IMG/VR virus record: IMGVR_UViG_2541047954_000008
Direction: 5' to 3' (one strand)
Origin: a virus
Lineage: Duplodnaviria > Heunggongvirae > Uroviricota > Caudoviricetes
DNA length: 34,146 bases
The notes beneath the pieces are model-generated. The model was not told the DNA's origin and ran no database searches. It worked only from the letters and a program-made list of their open reading frames with translations. The position numbers and the translations under genes are program-made. Shown here in pieces: positions 17,764 to 33,255 of this stretch (positions within the stretch are counted from its first letter, which is position 1; every line of letters begins with the position of its first letter).

Positions 17764-17838
<75 letters not shown>

Positions 17839-17841
17839 ATA

Positions 17842-17917
<76 letters not shown>

Positions 17918-17919
17918 AC

Positions 17920-17996
17920 TGGACCGCCACCGGGGACTCGAACCTCGCACACTCAACTTAAAGGGTTGACGCTCTTTCCTGATGAGCTAGTGGCGG
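17920..17996 (-). tRNA. tRNA-like gene, anticodon UUU (Lys) if canonical, with C at position 33
   Basis: Acceptor CCGCCAC/GTGGCGG, anticodon stem UCAAC/GUUGA, loop CCUUUAA, encoded CCA; noncanonical C33 and one T-stem mismatch. Confidence 0.5.
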
Positions 17997-17997
17997 T

Positions 17998-18073
17998 TGG
18001 TGGCCCTTGCTGGATTTGAACCAGCAACCTGGCGATTATGAGTCGCTCGCTCTCACCACTGAGCTAAAGGGCC
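17998..18073 (-). tRNA. tRNA with CAU anticodon (Ile2 lysidine-type or Met), ileX/ileZ-like
   Basis: Acceptor GGCCCUU, anticodon loop CUCAUAA, T-loop TTCAAAT, encoded CCA. Confidence 0.7.
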
Positions 18074-19831: not shown

Positions 19832-20193
19832 GCGCACTCCAGTTCTGTGATTTTTATCCCCAGCCGCCCACCAGGAACGAGCTGACCGCGCACAATATTG
19901 ATTTCATCAAACTGCTCGTCGTCTATAAGTAGTCCGGCATGCGTCAGCGCATCCAGTGGTGCCTTCAGGATATTGTCCAGGTCGCGGCGGCGCTTATCCG
20001 GTGGCTCTGCAATAATCTTTATCGCCAGCCTTCCGGACAGGCTTAATTTCAGCCGCTGCTGGCGAACAATTAGCGCCACATCACGGCGATAACGCTTTCC
20101 AGCTTCCGAGATGAAATACGTATTGCCATGACGTCGCCAGTAGGTATTCACCGTCGGCGGGTAAGGCAAAACAAATTCTATGCGTTCAGTCAT
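19828..20193 (-). CDS. rusA: RusA-family Holliday junction resolvase
   Basis: 121 aa; motifs YPPTVNTYWR and DKRRRDLDNILKAPLDAL recalled as RusA-like. Confidence 0.8.
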   Translation of the reverse strand: MTERIEFVLPYPPTVNTYWRRHGNTYFISEAGKRYRRDVALIVRQQRLKLSLSGRLAIKIIAEPPDKRRRDLDNILKAPLDALTHAGLLIDDEQFDEINIVRGQLVPGGRLGIKITELECA

Positions 20194-22361: not shown

Positions 22362-22517
22362 TTACTCCTCAGGTTCGTAAGCTGTGAAGACAGCGACCTC
22401 CGTCTGGCCGGTTCGGATTCGTACCTCGCAGAGGTCTTTCCTCGTTACCAGTGCCGTCACTATGACGGTTAAACAGATGACGATCAGGGCGATTAGCATC
22501 GCCTTTTGCTGCTTCAT
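22362..22517 (-). CDS. hok: Hok/Gef-family type I toxin (51 aa)
   Basis: MKQQKAMLIALIVICLTVIVTALVTRKDLCEVRIRTGQTEVAVFTAYEPEE, recalled as HokD/RelF-like; AGGAGAAG 8 nt upstream; in-frame upstream ATG at 22574 gives a 70-codon ORF. Confidence 0.85.
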   Translation of the reverse strand: MKQQKAMLIALIVICLTVIVTALVTRKDLCEVRIRTGQTEVAVFTAYEPEE

Positions 22518-22728
22518 AGCCTGCTTCTCCTTGCCTTTCGGCACGTAAGAGGCTAACCTACATGTGTTCAGCATGGATTGAGCCTCAGATTAATGTTAAG
22601 CGTCTTGCGGGACGCGTAATGTTAACTGGGGCTTTTCTCTATCTGCCGTTGGTGTTCATGCCCGAGGCAGATAGCCTCAAGCACCCGCAGCAATTCTACT
22701 TAACTCACGTCACCTCGCCAATATAAAA

Positions 22729-24067: not shown

Positions 24068-24541
24068 CTATTTCATAAAAATAATCCAGTGGGTTTTATC
24101 GTTTTTTCCTGTTCGTTGACCGATAACAGGTTTTCTGTCGGTCAGTATCAATATCTGGCGAACAGGTATTTGCGTTTCATTCCATTTAAAAATCAGAACG
24201 CCGGATGGACGCAACACACGAAAGGCTTCTTTAAATCCCTGCCGCAAATCATCACGCCAGGTATCTTTATTCAGCCGTCCATATTTCTTTCCCATCCAGG
24301 CGTTATCACCAACACGCTCAAGATGCGGAGGGTCGAATATAACCATCGAAAAAGATGCGTCTGCAAATGGTAGTGCACGAAAATCAGCTATCAGATCAGG
24401 ACTGATAATCAGGCGTCGTCCATCACACAATGTGTGCTCTTCCTTTCTGATATCGCTAAATATCGCCCGGTCGTCATTCTTATCGAACCAGAACATGCGA
24501 CTGCCACAGCACATATCAAGAATGGTTGCCGGTGCACTCAC
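24068..24541 (-). CDS. Orphan DNA methyltransferase (DPPH motif)
   Basis: 157 aa; LDMCCGSRMF (motif I-like) then IFDPPH (motif IV-like); GTG start with GGAGG upstream overlapping upstream stop; no restriction partner seen. Confidence 0.65.
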   Translation of the reverse strand: MSAPATILDMCCGSRMFWFDKNDDRAIFSDIRKEEHTLCDGRRLIISPDLIADFRALPFADASFSMVIFDPPHLERVGDNAWMGKKYGRLNKDTWRDDLRQGFKEAFRVLRPSGVLIFKWNETQIPVRQILILTDRKPVIGQRTGKNDKTHWIIFMK

Positions 24542-24960
24542 TGCGCTACCTCCGGAAAATTACCCTGATAGAAAGCCAGTACACGCTGCATAGCTTCGCT
24601 CTTCCGGCACTCGCGACAGATTATATTCAGACGCCCGTCATATCGGCGTATTTCTCCGTCTGGTAATGACCAGATAAGGTCAGGATCAACCACAACCGTT
24701 TTTTTCACCTTTGCCCTGGATAGTTTTTTGCGGGCGTTTTGCCAGTCCTTACGGGCCTGTTCAGACGGAAATAACCCGTAACCAGAGTTGTATACATCGC
24801 CACTGGCAACCAGCTCTCTGGCCAGAACGCTCATCAGATATCTTGTTGCCCCAGTTTTAGCTTCCAGTTGTCGTAACGTCTCGCGCCCACTCTGGCGTAC
24901 GAGTTCAAGAACCTGCCCTTTAATTTTTTCCCGCTCTTCTTGTGTAAAAACTTTTGCCAC
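24538..24960 (-). CDS. Hypothetical protein (140 aa), possible DNA-binding
   Basis: GTG start with AGGAGGG upstream; HTH-like TLRQLEAKTGATRYLMSVLAREL; follows replication gene. Confidence 0.55.
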   Translation of the reverse strand: MAKVFTQEEREKIKGQVLELVRQSGRETLRQLEAKTGATRYLMSVLARELVASGDVYNSGYGLFPSEQARKDWQNARKKLSRAKVKKTVVVDPDLIWSLPDGEIRRYDGRLNIICRECRKSEAMQRVLAFYQGNFPEVAQ

Positions 24961-25000
24961 AAGCCCTCCTGAAAATTACCTCATGACCAGAAATTAACAC

Positions 25001-26071
25001 TTACCCCCTGAAGCCCGGCGGAATTTCGTTATCCGGTTCAGAAATATGATTCACACAACGCTGGTTGTTCGTGCCGCTTACCGGGAGCAACCAGGGGTTC
25101 TCAAAATTCCGGTCCGGTCCAAAAAACGTCGTCGCTCGCTGAACAAATTCCGTTCCCGTTTTCCCGGTAGCCGCCAAGTATCTTGCGTAACGCCTCACGC
25201 CATCCAGCATGGCCTCTGGTGGCACCCCCTCGCGTAATCTGGCCTTCCAGGCACTGAAAGCGGATTTCTTCGGGTTTGCTCCGGCACGCAACGGGTACTC
25301 CCGCCAGACCTGTTCGAACACATCCGGATAATCCACTCGTCCCACAGACTGCCCGGTGTTTTCCGGGACTACCCGATCGGCTTCCCGCTGAATGGCGGAA
25401 TCGGCTTCAGGCTGCTGCAGTTGGTGTGATTGCTCCGGCCTTGCGGTCATCACCTGCTGCACAGCGCCCGAATCGGCTTTCAGCGCATACGCTGAATCGG
25501 CTTCCGGTGTCGTGCCTGCTGGCTGACCAAGATTGACGGTCTGAACATCCCCTGCCTGGTTCGTGGCGTTTTTTACGCCATGGACCATAGTGTTTTGATC
25601 TTCTTGATCTGTATCTTTATCTGTATCTTTATCTGTCGTGACTCGTCGTGACATGTGCGTGACATTTCGTGACGCGCCGTGACAATCGCCATTTTGTTCC
25701 CGCTTTCTTTCCCTCTCTCGCTGCGCCCTCTTGCGCTCTGCAGGAGATTTTGCGGTTTGCGAAATATTGCCGTTGTCCTCTTTAAGCACCTGGCGTTTTT
25801 CCCATCCAGTGATTAAATCACCATCAAGTACCCGCCCCTGCATCGTCTGCAAAATTGAATCAATTACCTCTTCTGTCACGTCGAGCGCACTTGCCAAATC
25901 TTCTGTCGTGACATCAATGTGACCTCGCGTGACATTTCGTGACGCGCTCACCAGGAGGTGGATATACACTGCCATCACTGTTGCAATTGGCTGCCCTGAC
26001 ACCCTGGCAATTGTTCGCCACTTAGGGTCATTTGGCATGTCATGCCATAATCTGAGCCAAGCGTTAGCCAT
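25001..26071 (-). CDS. Replication initiator (O-like) containing the origin iterons
   Basis: ATG 26071-26069 with GAGGTGAG upstream; two CGTGAC iteron clusters plus an AT-rich tandem repeat inside the gene, as in lambda O/ori. Confidence 0.6.
   Translation of the reverse strand: MANAWLRLWHDMPNDPKWRTIARVSGQPIATVMAVYIHLLVSASRNVTRGHIDVTTEDLASALDVTEEVIDSILQTMQGRVLDGDLITGWEKRQVLKEDNGNISQTAKSPAERKRAQRERERKREQNGDCHGASRNVTHMSRRVTTDKDTDKDTDQEDQNTMVHGVKNATNQAGDVQTVNLGQPAGTTPEADSAYALKADSGAVQQVMTARPEQSHQLQQPEADSAIQREADRVVPENTGQSVGRVDYPDVFEQVWREYPLRAGANPKKSAFSAWKARLREGVPPEAMLDGVRRYARYLAATGKTGTEFVQRATTFFGPDRNFENPWLLPVSGTNNQRCVNHISEPDNEIPPGFRG
25637..25683. repeat. Iteron cluster A: five CGTGAC cores at 10-11 bp spacing, next to tandem atctgtatcttt repeats (25608-25634)
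   Basis: Read directly: gtcgtgac tcgtcgtgac atgtgcgtgac atttcgtgac gcgccgtgac. Confidence 0.6.
25905..25943. repeat. Iteron cluster B: four (C)GTGAC cores at about 10 bp spacing
   Basis: Read directly; cgtgacatttcgtgacgcgc is shared exactly with cluster A. Confidence 0.55.
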
Positions 26072-26142
26072 ACTCACCTCTTCTGATACCGAATCTTTTT
26101 ACTCACGAGTTGCCGGAAGCGATTCGATATGGCTATTGTCAG

Positions 26143-26568
26143 TCAATGTACTGCCACAGCATTTCCTGCCGGGCCACCACGGTTCATCTGATTGAAACCG
26201 GCGATTGCCACTGCGACAAAATCATCAGCGTCTCTCACCAATCGCTCCCGCGTCTCCACCAGCTCCCGAAAATAAGCTGAACTGTGGCTGCGCATTCTGG
26301 CCACCAGCAAAGGTGGCATTGCCTTTTCGATCGCTGGTAACAACGCCTGAATTTTTTCAACTGCATCAGGGGTGTCTTTCTCTACCCAGCGGAAAATTTT
26401 CTGGGTATTGCGAGCCAGGGCTTCCGGATGGCTGTCGTCATACAGTTCAGGAAACGTCATACCCAACTCAAAATAAGCCTGGGTTATTCCAGCTGCTGGA
26501 ACTTTTTCGCCATCAGGACGCGCCCAGGCATTCATCGCCATGCGGATGTGTTCATGCTTGATTTTCAT
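26143..26568 (-). CDS. YdaT-like early protein
   Basis: ATG 26568-26566 (MKIKHEHI) with AAGGGGGGA upstream; position between cro-like and O-like as in Rac ydaS-ydaT-ydaU (recalled). Confidence 0.5.
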   Translation of the reverse strand: MKIKHEHIRMAMNAWARPDGEKVPAAGITQAYFELGMTFPELYDDSHPEALARNTQKIFRWVEKDTPDAVEKIQALLPAIEKAMPPLLVARMRSHSSAYFRELVETRERLVRDADDFVAVAIAGFNQMNRGGPAGNAVAVH

Positions 26569-26794
26569 GAATCCCCCCTTGGTTAGAAGGCGGATTATGA
26601 TCAGAACCGGGAATGACAACCGTCGGTATGTGTAACTCATATTTGAGCGCCCCGGCAGTGACTGCCTGAATTAGCAACGCCCATTTCCACGGAACCTCTT
26701 CCCCCCACATGCTGACTGTGGTTTTTGACGTTCCTAGAGCTGCGGCTGTTTTAACAACTCCGCCAAAATAGCCTAATACTTCTGATTTTTTCAT
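26552..26794 (-). CDS. Cro-like HTH regulator
   Basis: 80 aa from ATG 26794-26792 (GGAG upstream); HTH-like VVKTAAALGTSKTTVSMW; divergent from cI-like gene. Confidence 0.7.
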   Translation of the reverse strand: MKKSEVLGYFGGVVKTAAALGTSKTTVSMWGEEVPWKWALLIQAVTAGALKYELHIPTVVIPGSDHNPPSNQGGIHENQA

Positions 26795-26885
26795 GAGTCG
26801 CTCCATAAAACTGAACGCCAAAAGTTTAATAATCAAAACCAAAGAAAGTCAAGAAACAAAACCATCTGTGTTTTAAAATCAAAAC
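26795..26885. promoter_or_regulatory. Divergent immunity control region with two operator-like inverted repeats
   Basis: O1 agtttaataatcaaaacc 26823-26840; O2 tgttttaaaatcaaaaca 26869-26886 abutting the cI ATG; TTGACT -35 on the cro strand. Confidence 0.5.
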
Positions 26886-27524
26886 ATGAGCAAGCAAACA
26901 ATATCTGAACGCATAACCCAACGTATGCATGCGCTAAACCTGAAAGGCAAAGACCTTGTCAATGCCACTGGCGCATCAAAAGGCTCCGTAAGTCAATGGA
27001 TGAACGGTGGAGGAGCGCCGTCCTCGCGTTACATAAGTTCACTGGCAAAGGTATTGAAAGTAAACGAAAATTGGCTTCTTAATGGAGGAGAGTTAAATAC
27101 AGGTGATTCGCTTGATCTATCTTTACCGCCGATAAAAACGGTTCCGCTACTATCACTTCAGCAGGCAGCAAGCTGGAGTGATTATATGAAAAATTCCTCA
27201 ATAACCTCTTGTGTGCAGCTTGTCGGAGAAATCCCGGCCAATACCTTTGCAGTTGTTCTAGAGAGTGACAGTATGTCAACATCTGGTGGGGGAGTTTCCA
27301 TCCCAAATGGTTCAACAGTTTTTGTTGATCCCGATCGAACCGTACAACCAGGAAATATTGTCCTTGCCTTACCCAAAGGGACCACAACACCTGTCATTCG
27401 TAAACTGGAGATAGAAGGGCCGGATATTCTTTTAGTCCCCACGAATCCTCGCTACCCTTCAATTATGCTGGATGATCTATCTTGCATATTGGGCGTATGC
27501 TTTAAAATTCAACAAGATATTTAA
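26886..27524 (+). CDS. cI-like repressor (N-terminal HTH, C-terminal S24 LexA-like peptidase)
   Basis: 212 aa; HTH GKDLVNATGASKGSVSQWMNG; C-terminal ESDSMS (Ser) and downstream Lys consistent with Ser-Lys dyad. Confidence 0.85.
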   Translation: MSKQTISERITQRMHALNLKGKDLVNATGASKGSVSQWMNGGGAPSSRYISSLAKVLKVNENWLLNGGELNTGDSLDLSLPPIKTVPLLSLQQAASWSDYMKNSSITSCVQLVGEIPANTFAVVLESDSMSTSGGGVSIPNGSTVFVDPDRTVQPGNIVLALPKGTTTPVIRKLEIEGPDILLVPTNPRYPSIMLDDLSCILGVCFKIQQDI

Positions 27525-28687: not shown

Positions 28688-28745
28688 TTTCTGGTGACGT
28701 TTGGCGGTATCAGTTTTACTCCGTGACTGCTCTGCCGCCCTTTTT
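28688..28745 (+). ncRNA. dicF: DicF small RNA (antisense regulator of ftsZ) with hairpin and T-run terminator
   Basis: tttctggtgacgtttggcggtatcagttttactccgtgactgctctgccgcccttttt recalled as DicF; ends hand-estimated. Confidence 0.7.
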
Positions 28746-33165: not shown

Positions 33166-33255
33166 TGGCGGAGAGAGGGGGATTTGAACCCCCGGTGGAG
33201 TTGCCCCCACTCCGGTTTTCGAGACCGGTCCGTTCAGCCGCTCCGGCATCTCTCC
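33166..33255 (-). tRNA. serU: tRNA-Ser (anticodon CGA), host gene serving as att site
   Basis: 90-nt cloverleaf with long variable arm: GGAGAGATGCCGGAGCGGCTGAACGGACCGGTCTCGAAAACCGG...CTCTCCGCCA. Confidence 0.8.

Follow-up and report, generated by a model that had tools for sequence, protein, structure and literature searches.

A putative theta-type replication origin embedded in the initiator gene of a lambdoid prophage

In iteron plasmids (pSC101, R6K, RK2, P1, F), in-phase head-to-tail repeats bind a winged-helix initiator beside an AT-rich unwinding element; extra control clusters are common, and no dedicated loader is needed for the initiators to recruit host DnaB-DnaC. Lambda iterons are internally symmetric, and ori-lambda has also been described with a palindrome beyond its AT-rich tract. 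In the Bacillus phage SPP1, the origin oriL lies within gene 38. To our knowledge, neither DnaD nor DnaT is a sequence-specific origin binder. Ori-lambda occupies bases 39034-39160 within the O gene, ~348 nt into that gene, and comprises four iterons with an adjoining AT-rich stretch of 38 bp (PMC3349717; PMC7466680). In SPP1, G38P is reported to start theta replication by binding oriL and to bind at another, distant site as well (PMC5615212, citing Missich et al. 1997).

Here, we describe a locus in a window of 34,146 nucleotides (the whole stretch of DNA that was analyzed, IMG/VR record IMGVR_UViG_2541047954_000008). We estimate a probability of roughly 0.8 that positions 25557-25947 are the vegetative (theta-type) origin of a lambdoid Escherichia coli prophage, embedded in its own initiator gene. 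An earlier note had placed a replication origin inside this gene and likened it to lambda. The first claim is supported on sequence grounds. All the features described are present, with small corrections, and the arrangement does parallel ori-lambda. The resemblance is one of analogy, not homology.

Like ori-lambda, the proposed origin is placed centrally in the initiator gene, where the codons link the N- and C-terminal domains, at a similar offset from the start codon (~348 nt in O, ~389 nt for the start of iteron cluster A) and at the same place in a cI-cro-cII-rep early operon. It likewise combines a direct repeat array (here of putative initiator sites) with an AT-rich tract on one side, and iteron number varies in frame, lengthening the protein, as in ori-lambda and the six-iteron origins of the Stx phages P27 and 933W (PMC3349717; PMC7466680). 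On the other hand, the initiator is not homologous to lambda O (it has no Pfam match and falls in a different PHROG family), the locus lacks a P-type loader, and the repeats are 10-11 bp head-to-tail cores rather than 18-bp units (PMC3349717). A second cluster (B) and an inverted core, absent from ori-lambda, are found in the codons of the DNA-binding domain, with cluster B 260 bp upstream of cluster A.

The other described systems each share part of this arrangement. SPP1 G38P has the same "phage replisome organizer" annotation and is matched by an N-terminal domain resembling that of DnaD, but SPP1 brings a loader (G39P) and a helicase (G40P) of its own, neither of which occurs here, and infects Bacillus whereas the hosts here are Proteobacteria. 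Moreover, the present initiator has no match to the G38P family, PF09681, at E <= 0.01, and its second cluster is within the same gene, not kilobases away. The locus shares with iteron plasmids the helically phased head-to-tail repeats beside an AT-rich run, a predicted winged-helix initiator and the lack of a dedicated loader; it differs in having no nearby DnaA boxes, repeats of about half the usual length, an origin inside coding sequence and an initiator without a Pfam match to plasmid Rep families. Finally, the C-terminal domain resembles DnaD of Firmicutes in that it has a YxxxFxxxW motif and weakly matches a DnaD-like protein, and the last 13 residues are nearly identical to those of E. 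coli DnaT, although the C-terminal domain itself falls below the Pfam DnaT threshold. Our search of the openly available literature found no description of this origin; a prior description is possible.

The initiator gene and its neighbors

In public records the initiator is named "phage replisome organizer" (the name used by NCBI) or "DNA replication protein O." The coding features are:

25001-26077, minus strand: gene of the initiator ("phage replisome organizer"; 358 aa when read from GTG 26077)
25793-26071, minus strand: coding region of the N-terminal winged-helix domain (model residues 1-93)
25691-25750, minus strand: coding region of the basic helix, AERKRAQRERERKRE (model residues 108-127), candidate specificity element
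25088-25330, minus strand: coding region of the helical C-terminal domain, which opens with the YxxxFxxxW motif
25004-25045, minus strand: C-terminal tail ISEPDNEIPPGFRG, all but identical with the end of the host primosomal protein DnaT
24538-24960, minus strand: next gene downstream, DUF977 protein of 140 aa (PF06163, E = 6e-28), given for context only

The probable true start is ATG 26071, which gives a protein of 356 aa. This protein belongs with phrog_3729, "replication initiation protein" (E = 5.5e-258), and has weak matches to the "replisome organizer" families phrog_4880 (4e-6) and phrog_5968 (2e-4) as well as to DnaD-like families. No Pfam family was matched at E <= 0.01, including PF09681, Phage_rep_O and the plasmid Rep families. 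Thus, the gene, previously called O-like, is annotated as a phage replication initiator or replisome organizer but is not a lambda O homologue. The structure model predicts a single winged helix, with a fold resembling the DnaD N-terminal domain, followed by a basic helix; there was no WH1-WH2 (Rep_3) match. The similarity to DnaT is confined to the end of the protein: the match to NCBIfam NF002770 (DnaT; model positions 156-179, E = 7e-4, 19 bits against a cut-off of 201) covers only the last 24 residues, and PDB entry 6aep ("Primosomal protein 1"), which ends in ...SEPDNHIPPGFRG, matches only the tail, with E = 0.48. Other family members (9/36) carry the Pfam DnaT domain (PF17948) instead.

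The early genes are ordered cI, Cro, YdaT/CII-like and rep. In relatives the order is rep-DnaC-like-(DUF1627)-DUF977, and those sharing the same C-terminal domain have a DnaC-like gene. At this locus, by contrast, no helicase or loader gene lies downstream of the initiator, in agreement with the earlier note; the adjacent gene, which it called a 140-aa HTH-like protein, has that length and is more precisely a DUF977 protein. Phage Tritos, identical to the window over 25349-26059, has no helicase or loader annotated anywhere in its complete genome. Tritos produces virions and formed a plaque once on the K-12 strain MG1655 (PMC9928086). Of 5426 complete E. coli genomes, 1647 carry the initiator gene at >=80% coverage, and many of these chromosomal copies are likely to lie in defective prophages.

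Iteron arrays and core classes

Three repeat elements, none assigned to a strand, lie within the coding sequence:

25905-25947: iteron cluster B, four head-to-tail cores, in winged-helix codons
25875-25880: single inverted iteron core, coding for D-V-T
25637-25683: iteron cluster A, five head-to-tail CGTGAC cores, in inter-domain linker codons

The five CGTGAC cores reported for cluster A are borne out, with plus-strand starts at 25637, 25647, 25658, 25668 and 25678 (spacing 10/11/10/10) and a Tandem Repeats Finder period of 10 with 4.9 copies. Four further CGTGAC cores had been listed for cluster B; the cluster does hold four, but only three are exact (25907, 25928 and 25938), the other being a TGTGAC variant at 25918 (spacing 11/10/10). 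The shared 20-mer, CGTGACATTTCGTGACGCGC, occurs as exact copies at 25658-25677 and 25928-25947 and in none of 100 shuffles. The repeat units are 10-11 bp and run head to tail, and the six-base core has no dyad symmetry. Altogether, 307 bp of the initiator gene contain nine exact CGTGAC and one TGTGAC. The nine compare with 0.13 expected (Poisson P ~ 3e-14), while the 21 sites across the window against 14.8 expected indicate no window-wide enrichment.

The inverted core at 25875-25880 had been overlooked in the earlier note; its V codon is GTG in 17/17 homologues.

Related loci, whose hosts range from Enterobacteria to Bordetella and Pseudomonas, fall into three core classes, GTCACG (the class of the window, as read on the coding strand), GTAACG and CGAACG. 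Each class fills both clusters at the same gene positions, and each locus holds essentially only its own class of core. Core density is 14 to 47 times higher in the origin segment than in flanking DNA, the figure of 47 applying to the cores of cluster A, and array conservation and co-variation are seen in at least 30 loci. A further 22 GTCACG-class loci have cluster A at the matching gene position, and core-to-core spacing over all 23 loci is 10 bp in 96 cases and 11 bp in 29. Indels among homologues map to cluster B, in 21-nt steps equal to two iterons, and one variant (P0019), an example of the copies likely to lie in defective prophages, has neither cluster A nor the AT-rich run. The distance between clusters B and A (248-281 nt) looked suggestive of helical phasing by eye, but this was not rigorous, and we dropped it.

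Repeats inside a gene could be a by-product of a repetitive peptide, or of slippage in a low-complexity linker, with no function at the DNA level. A 12-bp tandem repeat next to cluster A is indeed in frame and encodes TDKDTDKDTD, the peptide SRNVT is found in both clusters, and the nearby PEADSA / GAATCGGCTT repeats, also in frame, could have arisen in this way. The 10/11-bp cores, however, cycle through all three reading frames, and their synonymous sites are frozen: in a set of 20 diverged homologues, drawn from Gamma- and Betaproteobacteria (62-87% nucleotide identity), normalized codon entropy is 0.06 for the nine codons over cores, whereas the other conserved codons, 46 in number, have 0.83 (Mann-Whitney p = 1.3e-6), and adjacent invariant residues vary freely in codon use. 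In addition, other lineages carry a different core in both clusters together with a matching different peptide, that encoded at cluster B changing along with core class, and the last core is held at a fixed 8 nt from the AT-rich run. For these reasons we conclude that the repeats are not a coding by-product, an explanation that is already contradicted for the cores and, for the arrays as a whole, extremely improbable. The earlier note had itself raised purely coding-driven repeats as what would undo its proposal, and the frames, frozen codons and core classes stand clearly against this. Judging from codon usage, selection on the cores acts on DNA rather than on protein.

If the initiator binds the cores, some of its residues might be expected to follow core class. 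No class-specific residues were found in the recognition helix or wing of the predicted winged helix; the best discriminators are in the basic helix that follows it, modeled at residues 110-127. Residues 114 and 117 sort with iteron class, as K114/Q117 accompany GTCACG in 22/22 cases, V or A at 114 and Y or F at 117 accompany GTAACG, and A114/W117 accompany CGAACG. This makes the basic helix a candidate specificity element, although the sorting could simply mark clades. In the structure model, the peptide encoded at cluster B (ASRNVTRGHIDVT) takes up the last part of helix 1 of the winged helix and the loop that leads into helix 2. A "self-encoding" role for that peptide as the recognition element was also considered; it lies outside the modeled recognition helix, and such a role is very improbable.

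The cores could also be read by another protein, such as DUF977, the YdaT/CII-like protein, Cro or a host factor, which would fit a winged-helix recognition helix that is the same between iteron classes. Against this, the 33 loci surveyed have very different neighboring genes but keep their arrays in place, the hosts are as varied as noted above, and it is initiator residues 114 and 117 that sort with class. For DnaA specifically, no TTATCCACA with <=1 mismatch was found in 25000-26200, the nearest being at 19854. We therefore do not propose a DnaA-dependent origin, and we rate recognition by any protein other than the initiator as highly unlikely.

The AT-rich run and the palindrome

Two further elements, again without an assigned strand, adjoin cluster A:

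25588-25636: AT-rich, purine/pyrimidine-skewed run with low GC and a 12-bp tandem repeat, the presumed unwinding element
25557-25587: palindrome (13-nt arms, 5-nt loop), flanking the AT-rich run on the side away from cluster A

In gene orientation the AT-rich run reads ACAGATAAAGATACAGATAAAGATACAGATCAAGAAGATCAAAAC and codes for TDKDTDKDTDQEDQN. The tandem repeat, earlier noted at 25608-25634, was recovered by Tandem Repeats Finder with a measured extent of 25602-25636 (12-bp unit TCTTTATCTGTA, 2.9 copies, 95% matches). GC content is 32.5% at 25580-25639 compared with 55-65% around it, and the GATC sites at 25597 and 25606 are the only two within 25400-26100. AGATA starts exactly 8 nt past the last core in 22/23 GTCACG-class loci, and an A-rich (GATAAA)n run is kept in all iteron classes. 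We rejected a DnaA-trio-like reading of (GATAAA)n, as it departs from the 3'-GAT-5' trio in both polarity and period and has no anchoring DnaA box.

The geometry of the run bears on whether the arrays are instead initiator sites used for control (an autorepression roadblock, handcuffing copy control or exclusion of related phages), with replication starting elsewhere. Iteron plasmids offer familiar examples of secondary clusters that serve in control, and cluster B lies early in the gene without an adjoining AT-rich run. Cloned lambda iterons, moreover, silence replication of incoming phage (PMC3349717). The distance from cluster A to a conserved AT-rich run is nevertheless fixed in every class, the signature of an unwinding site, and no other iteron cluster was found in the window or in ~6 kb around 29 related genes. 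We consider it unlikely that control is the role of both arrays; for cluster B alone, a control role is reasonable.

The palindrome had been described as TGGCGT and ACGCCA separated by four T. It is present at 25564-25580, but the loop is five T and the arms extend to 13 nt (25557-25569 and 25575-25587; 85% complementarity). As single-stranded DNA it folds with -8.7 kcal/mol (z = -3.2). Its pairing is kept in relatives by compensatory changes (GGCGT/ACGCC versus GGCGA/TCGCC; GGTCC/GGACC versus GGTTCA/TGAACC) that alter amino acids. In a perfect-stem test, a hairpin after the AT-rich run was the best in its gene in 7/35 loci, and 5/42 background segments of the present initiator gene were equally good; given this mixed result, we do not claim that such a hairpin is universal in the family.

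The palindrome may be a conserved accessory element of the origin. It could instead act at the transcript level, as a terminator of antisense plus-strand transcription or as a hairpin in the sense mRNA: a consensus scan scores it as a terminator-like hairpin on the plus strand (13 pairs, tail TAGTGTTTTG), and it travels with the C-terminal module, not with the iterons. However, the T-run is short, no plus-strand promoter-like site was found upstream within 24400-25557, and where the C-terminal module is a different one, an unrelated hairpin often occupies this place after the AT-rich run. A transcript-level element is possible, though we think it the less probable of the two roles.

A possible mechanism and its significance

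Taking 25557-25947 as the origin, gene order suggests that transcription from an early rightward-type promoter would first produce the initiator. The co-variation described above points to the N-terminal part (DnaD-like winged helix plus basic helix) as the likely ligand of the GTCACG cores. Since these recur every 10-11 bp, about one helical turn, the bound proteins would line up on one face of the DNA, and an O-some-like nucleoprotein array could then form on cluster A, beside the AT-rich run. More speculatively, cluster B and the inverted core might provide extra sites that loop to cluster A and stabilize or regulate the complex. Fixed geometry and low GC suggest that stress from the array would melt the (GATAAA/GATACA)n run, which begins 8 nt past the last core. 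The DnaD-like C-terminal domain and DnaT-like tail could then engage single-stranded DNA and bring in host DnaB-DnaC; we infer such recruitment from domain similarity together with the absence of a helicase or loader among the annotated genes of Tritos.

A more specific reading would combine several of these elements, making the locus the type example for widespread use among temperate phages of Proteobacteria: a previously undescribed bipartite origin architecture, in which one array sits in a loop of the DNA-binding domain and dictates the loop peptide while the second lies in the linker, 8 nt from (GATAAA)n; a simple recognition code at residues 114/117 that the natural core classes follow; the loss of a DnaC-like loader in this lineage; and an initiator working alone, with its DnaD-like C-terminal domain and a copy of the host DnaT tail recruiting host DnaB-DnaC. 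We put this combination forward tentatively, as doubtful when all its parts are taken together.

The kind of element described here is textbook, and its layout (two repeat clusters, an easily melted stretch and a hairpin) is conserved across many bacteria. The finding extends a textbook design to another initiator family and overturns nothing in current understanding. The gene is nevertheless carried by 1647 of the 5426 E. coli genomes, where it goes only by "phage replisome organizer" or "hypothetical protein" and no origin feature is marked. With the origin placed, prophages could be annotated at defined coordinates, induction and marker-frequency data could be interpreted against them, and replicons could be built. 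The locus also offers a clean natural case of overlapping codes, in which a putative DNA-binding array constrains the codons, and even the peptide, inside a folded domain. The variant seen here, which has a DnaT-like tail and no loader, is relevant to the way in which phage initiators take over the helicase of the host. Finally, the way in which changes in the basic helix match the three iteron classes suggests that a few orthogonal origin/initiator pairs exist and might be put to use, and the recognition code, if true, would make such pairs mutually orthogonal.

Layout of the predicted origin and its gene

We examined an array of short repeats within the initiator gene, whose ORF (25001-26077, minus strand) encodes 358 aa from a GTG, with a probable ATG start at 26071. 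The gene order around it is that of a lambdoid early operon.

Features of the predicted origin and its neighbourhood
Beyond the DUF977 gene, minus strand: methyltransferase-like gene
24538-24960, minus strand: DUF977 gene, next after the initiator ORF
25557-25587: palindrome, 13-nt arms
25602-25636: 12-bp tandem repeat, 2.9 copies
25637, 25647, 25658, 25668 and 25678, plus strand: cluster A, five CGTGAC cores
25875-25880: single inverted core
25907, 25928 and 25938, plus strand: cluster B, three CGTGAC cores, with a TGTGAC variant at 25918
26143-26571, minus strand: YdaT/CII-like gene
26552-26842, minus strand: P22_Cro-type gene
26886-27524, plus strand: S24/HTH cI-like repressor gene

The inventory drawn up in the earlier note holds up, with three minor corrections. 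All five cluster A cores were found on the plus strand (25637 to 25678), the AT-rich tandem repeat lies beside them, and the 20-mer common to both clusters (CGTGACATTTCGTGACGCGC) is exact at 25658 and 25928, which is consistent with recent homogenisation. Only three of the four cluster B cores are exact, the palindrome has a loop of five T rather than four, and the inverted core is an addition. CGTGAC is not enriched over the whole window (21 versus 14.8 expected); within 307 bp there are nine, with 0.13 expected (P ~3e-14). GC drops to 32.5% at the tandem repeat, and the palindrome folds as single-stranded DNA at -8.7 kcal/mol (z = -3.2). We predict that the features at 25557-25947 form a replication origin, a reading supported by strong comparative evidence.

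The only two GATC (Dam) sites within 25400-26100 lie inside the AT-rich run (25597-25609), 9 bp apart, and may matter for how methylation or SeqA controls melting. Sequences resembling AGATCTAAAAGATC at the distal end of the run also occur in enterobacterial relatives.

The initiator has no Pfam match but is covered end to end by phrog_3729 “replication initiation protein” (E = 5.5e-258). Its N- and C-halves are matched by separate PHROG families, with half-length names that include “DnaD-like helicase loader,” “primosomal protein” and “replisome organizer”; in public records it goes by “DNA replication protein O,” “phage replisome organizer” or “primosomal protein I.” The C-terminal linker (25400-25507) contains GAATCGGCTT (peptide PEADSA) three times in frame, and Stx phage 75/02 carries these copies as well. 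A 32-residue stretch between two PEADSA copies is missing from the 324-aa variants (P0004 and others), an outcome that recombination between the repeats would be expected to give.

Elsewhere in the window, Rfam identified a sok antitoxin RNA of a hok/sok-type module (22512-22686, minus strand, 113 bits) and a DicF antisense RNA (28689-28740, plus strand, 77 bits). Both are typical features of Qin/Rac-like lambdoid prophages, and both occur in phage Tritos, an E. coli LF82 phage. Four tRNA genes cluster at 17767-18073 (minus strand), with another at 33169-33255 (minus strand).

Conservation of the repeats

Scanning one genome per bacterial species yielded 38 loci with the initiator N-domain, a DnaD-like winged helix, in Enterobacteria, Pseudomonas, Bordetella, Acidovorax, Aquitalea, Chromobacterium and others. 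Read in the direction of the gene, GTCAC(G) cores fall at nt 129/139/149/160 (cluster B) in 23 loci, which also have an inverted core near nt 193 and three to five cores at nt ~380-450 (cluster A). Successive cores are 10 bp apart in 96 cases and 11 bp apart in 29, approximately one helical turn; because neither is a multiple of three, they pass through all three reading frames.

Codon choice was compared among 20 non-redundant genes (62-87% nucleotide identity). Over the cores, usage is frozen (Ala GCG 18/20, Ser TCA 19/20, Val GTC 20/20, Thr ACG 20/20, Gly GGT 20/20, His CAC 19/19, a second Val GTC 20/20 and a second Thr ACG 19/20), as is Val GTG over the inverted core (17/17). Choice is free for an Arg codon with its third base in the spacer, and also at invariant residues elsewhere in the gene. 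Normalised codon entropy is 0.06 over the cores (9 codons) versus 0.83 elsewhere (46 codons; Mann-Whitney p = 1.3e-6). Judged by these codons, the cores are under purifying selection on the DNA sequence itself. The earlier note had raised the possibility that the repeats are purely coding-driven; with core codons frozen and all three frames used, this explanation clearly fails.

Sister lineages carry other cores in both clusters at matching places, GTAACG (L022, L025, L033, L035, L043, and L044) and CGAACG (L030, L032, L034, and L038). Each class is essentially restricted to its own lineage, and its cores are 14 to 47 times denser within the 440-nt origin segment than across the ~6 kb around it. 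The cluster B peptide tracks the core (ASRNVTRGHxDVT vs GVTLHxVTVT vs SNATERGRTQN); in the predicted structure it would span the last part of helix 1 and the loop leading to helix 2. This position tolerates indels, and its insertions are 7 codons long (21 nt, two iterons). The DNA element therefore sets the protein sequence at cluster B, not vice versa.

In Serratia/Pantoea loci L037:3004-4191 and L039:3001-4302, ACTACG/CGTAGT repeats replace the usual cores and a long insertion (YVYYV...GISxNPWAR...DLK) occupies the place of cluster A; by eye, it resembles a domain of the GIY-YIG/T5orf172 type. The N-domain is also fused to HNH endonuclease domains (PF01844/PF14279) in proteins of ~180-190 aa (P0155, P0173, P0174, P0186, P0212, P0214, and P0222).

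The recognition helix and wing are nearly the same in all three classes. The best class-discriminating positions fall in a basic helix that immediately precedes cluster A (window 25691-25750): K114/Q117 in 22/22 GTCACG-class proteins, V or A at 114 together with Y or F at 117 among GTAACG-class proteins, and A114/W117 in the CGAACG class as well as in three loci whose cores are degenerate and of GAAC type. L027, with Y at 117 yet GTCACG-like cores, is a partial exception. These residues may be the specificity element, or may merely mark clades. Since the three core types have (A/C)ACG in common, part of their difference could reflect concerted evolution of uncontacted positions.

AGATA starts exactly 8 nt past the last cluster A core in 22/23 GTCACG-class loci, and GATAAA or GATACA runs (encoding DKDK or DTDK) are then present in every iteron class. 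Among codons that give a hydrophilic linker, these are the richest in AT, which explains the purine skew as well as the linker peptide.

The palindrome is part of the C-terminal module. It recurs in Stx phage 75/02 and related loci L042-L045, all with the window’s C-domain, and pairing is kept through changes in both arms: GGCGT/ACGCC in the window vs GGCGA/TCGCC (altering Val to Glu and Asn to Ile), and GGTCC/GGACC vs GGTTCA/TGAACC. Other C-modules often have an unrelated hairpin there (CCCCCC...GGGGGG, CGCGCA-TGCGCG, TCTCTCTCTCC...GGAGAGAGAGA); a simple perfect-stem test picks out a post-run hairpin in only 7/35 loci. Followed by TAGTGTTTTG, the palindrome (plus strand, 25557-25597) scores as intrinsic-terminator-like, and no promoter-like site was found upstream of it on that strand. 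Stx phage 75/02 (L002) combines the window’s C-domain with an unrelated N-domain, has no GTCACG arrays, and carries a (CAGGAA)n run (QEQEQE; L002:3589-3618) where the (GATAAA)n run sits.

Helicase loading and known systems

No DnaA box was found near the origin region. As the earlier note had stated, no P/DnaC-like loader follows the initiator; the next gene, labelled HTH-like there, is DUF977 (24538-24960). In all same-C-domain relatives examined (Stx phage 75/02, L042-L045), the initiator is immediately followed by a DnaC-like (IstB_IS21) gene, in the order rep, DnaC-like, DUF1627, DUF977 in L045:3638-5309, so the window lineage, very common in E. coli, most likely lost its loader. The ORF that comes first downstream differs among 33 loci (DnaC-like, DnaB-like, lambda P or unrelated), as do the C-domains (Pfam DnaT in 9/36), so the N-domain and its origin form a module that is joined by recombination to various loading strategies.

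Phage Tritos is identical to the window over 25349-26059, and none of its 56 annotated features is a helicase or loader. It makes virions and once gave one plaque on MG1655 (PMC9928086); a loader-less module is thus compatible with a viable phage, which presumably draws on host DnaB-DnaC. The initiator’s C-terminal residues ISEPDNEIPPGFRG (25004-25045, minus strand) nearly repeat the tail of the host primosomal protein DnaT (...SEPDNHIPPGFRG in PDB 6aep), a resemblance suggestive of mimicry of a host tail used in protein interactions.

The lambda origin lies inside O (bases 39034-39160, starting ~348 nt into the gene), with four iterons adjoining an AT-rich stretch of 38 bp; in Stx phages extra iterons lengthen the protein (PMC3349717; PMC7466680). 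The earlier note’s parallel with lambda holds for design. It does not extend to family: the window’s initiator is no O homologue, its units are short head-to-tail cores, and it has no loader, which places this origin outside the lambda family. The protein is nearer to replisome organizers, for example G38P of SPP1, which binds both oriL and another, distant site (PMC5615212), than to lambda O, although the window lacks the SPP1 loader and helicase and its initiator falls below the Pfam profile threshold. The second cluster recalls the control iterons of plasmids.

We found no description of this origin in the literature, subscription reviews lying outside the search. The kind of origin is well known; the initiator family is one in which mapping was apparently absent before. 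What is unusual is the bipartite iteron layout, the placing of one array in codons of the DNA-binding domain, the switching of core class, and a variant that has a DnaT-like tail and no loader. Conceptually, the origin extends a known design and is no surprise; since 1647 of the 5426 complete E. coli genomes contain the initiator gene, annotating this origin is of practical value.
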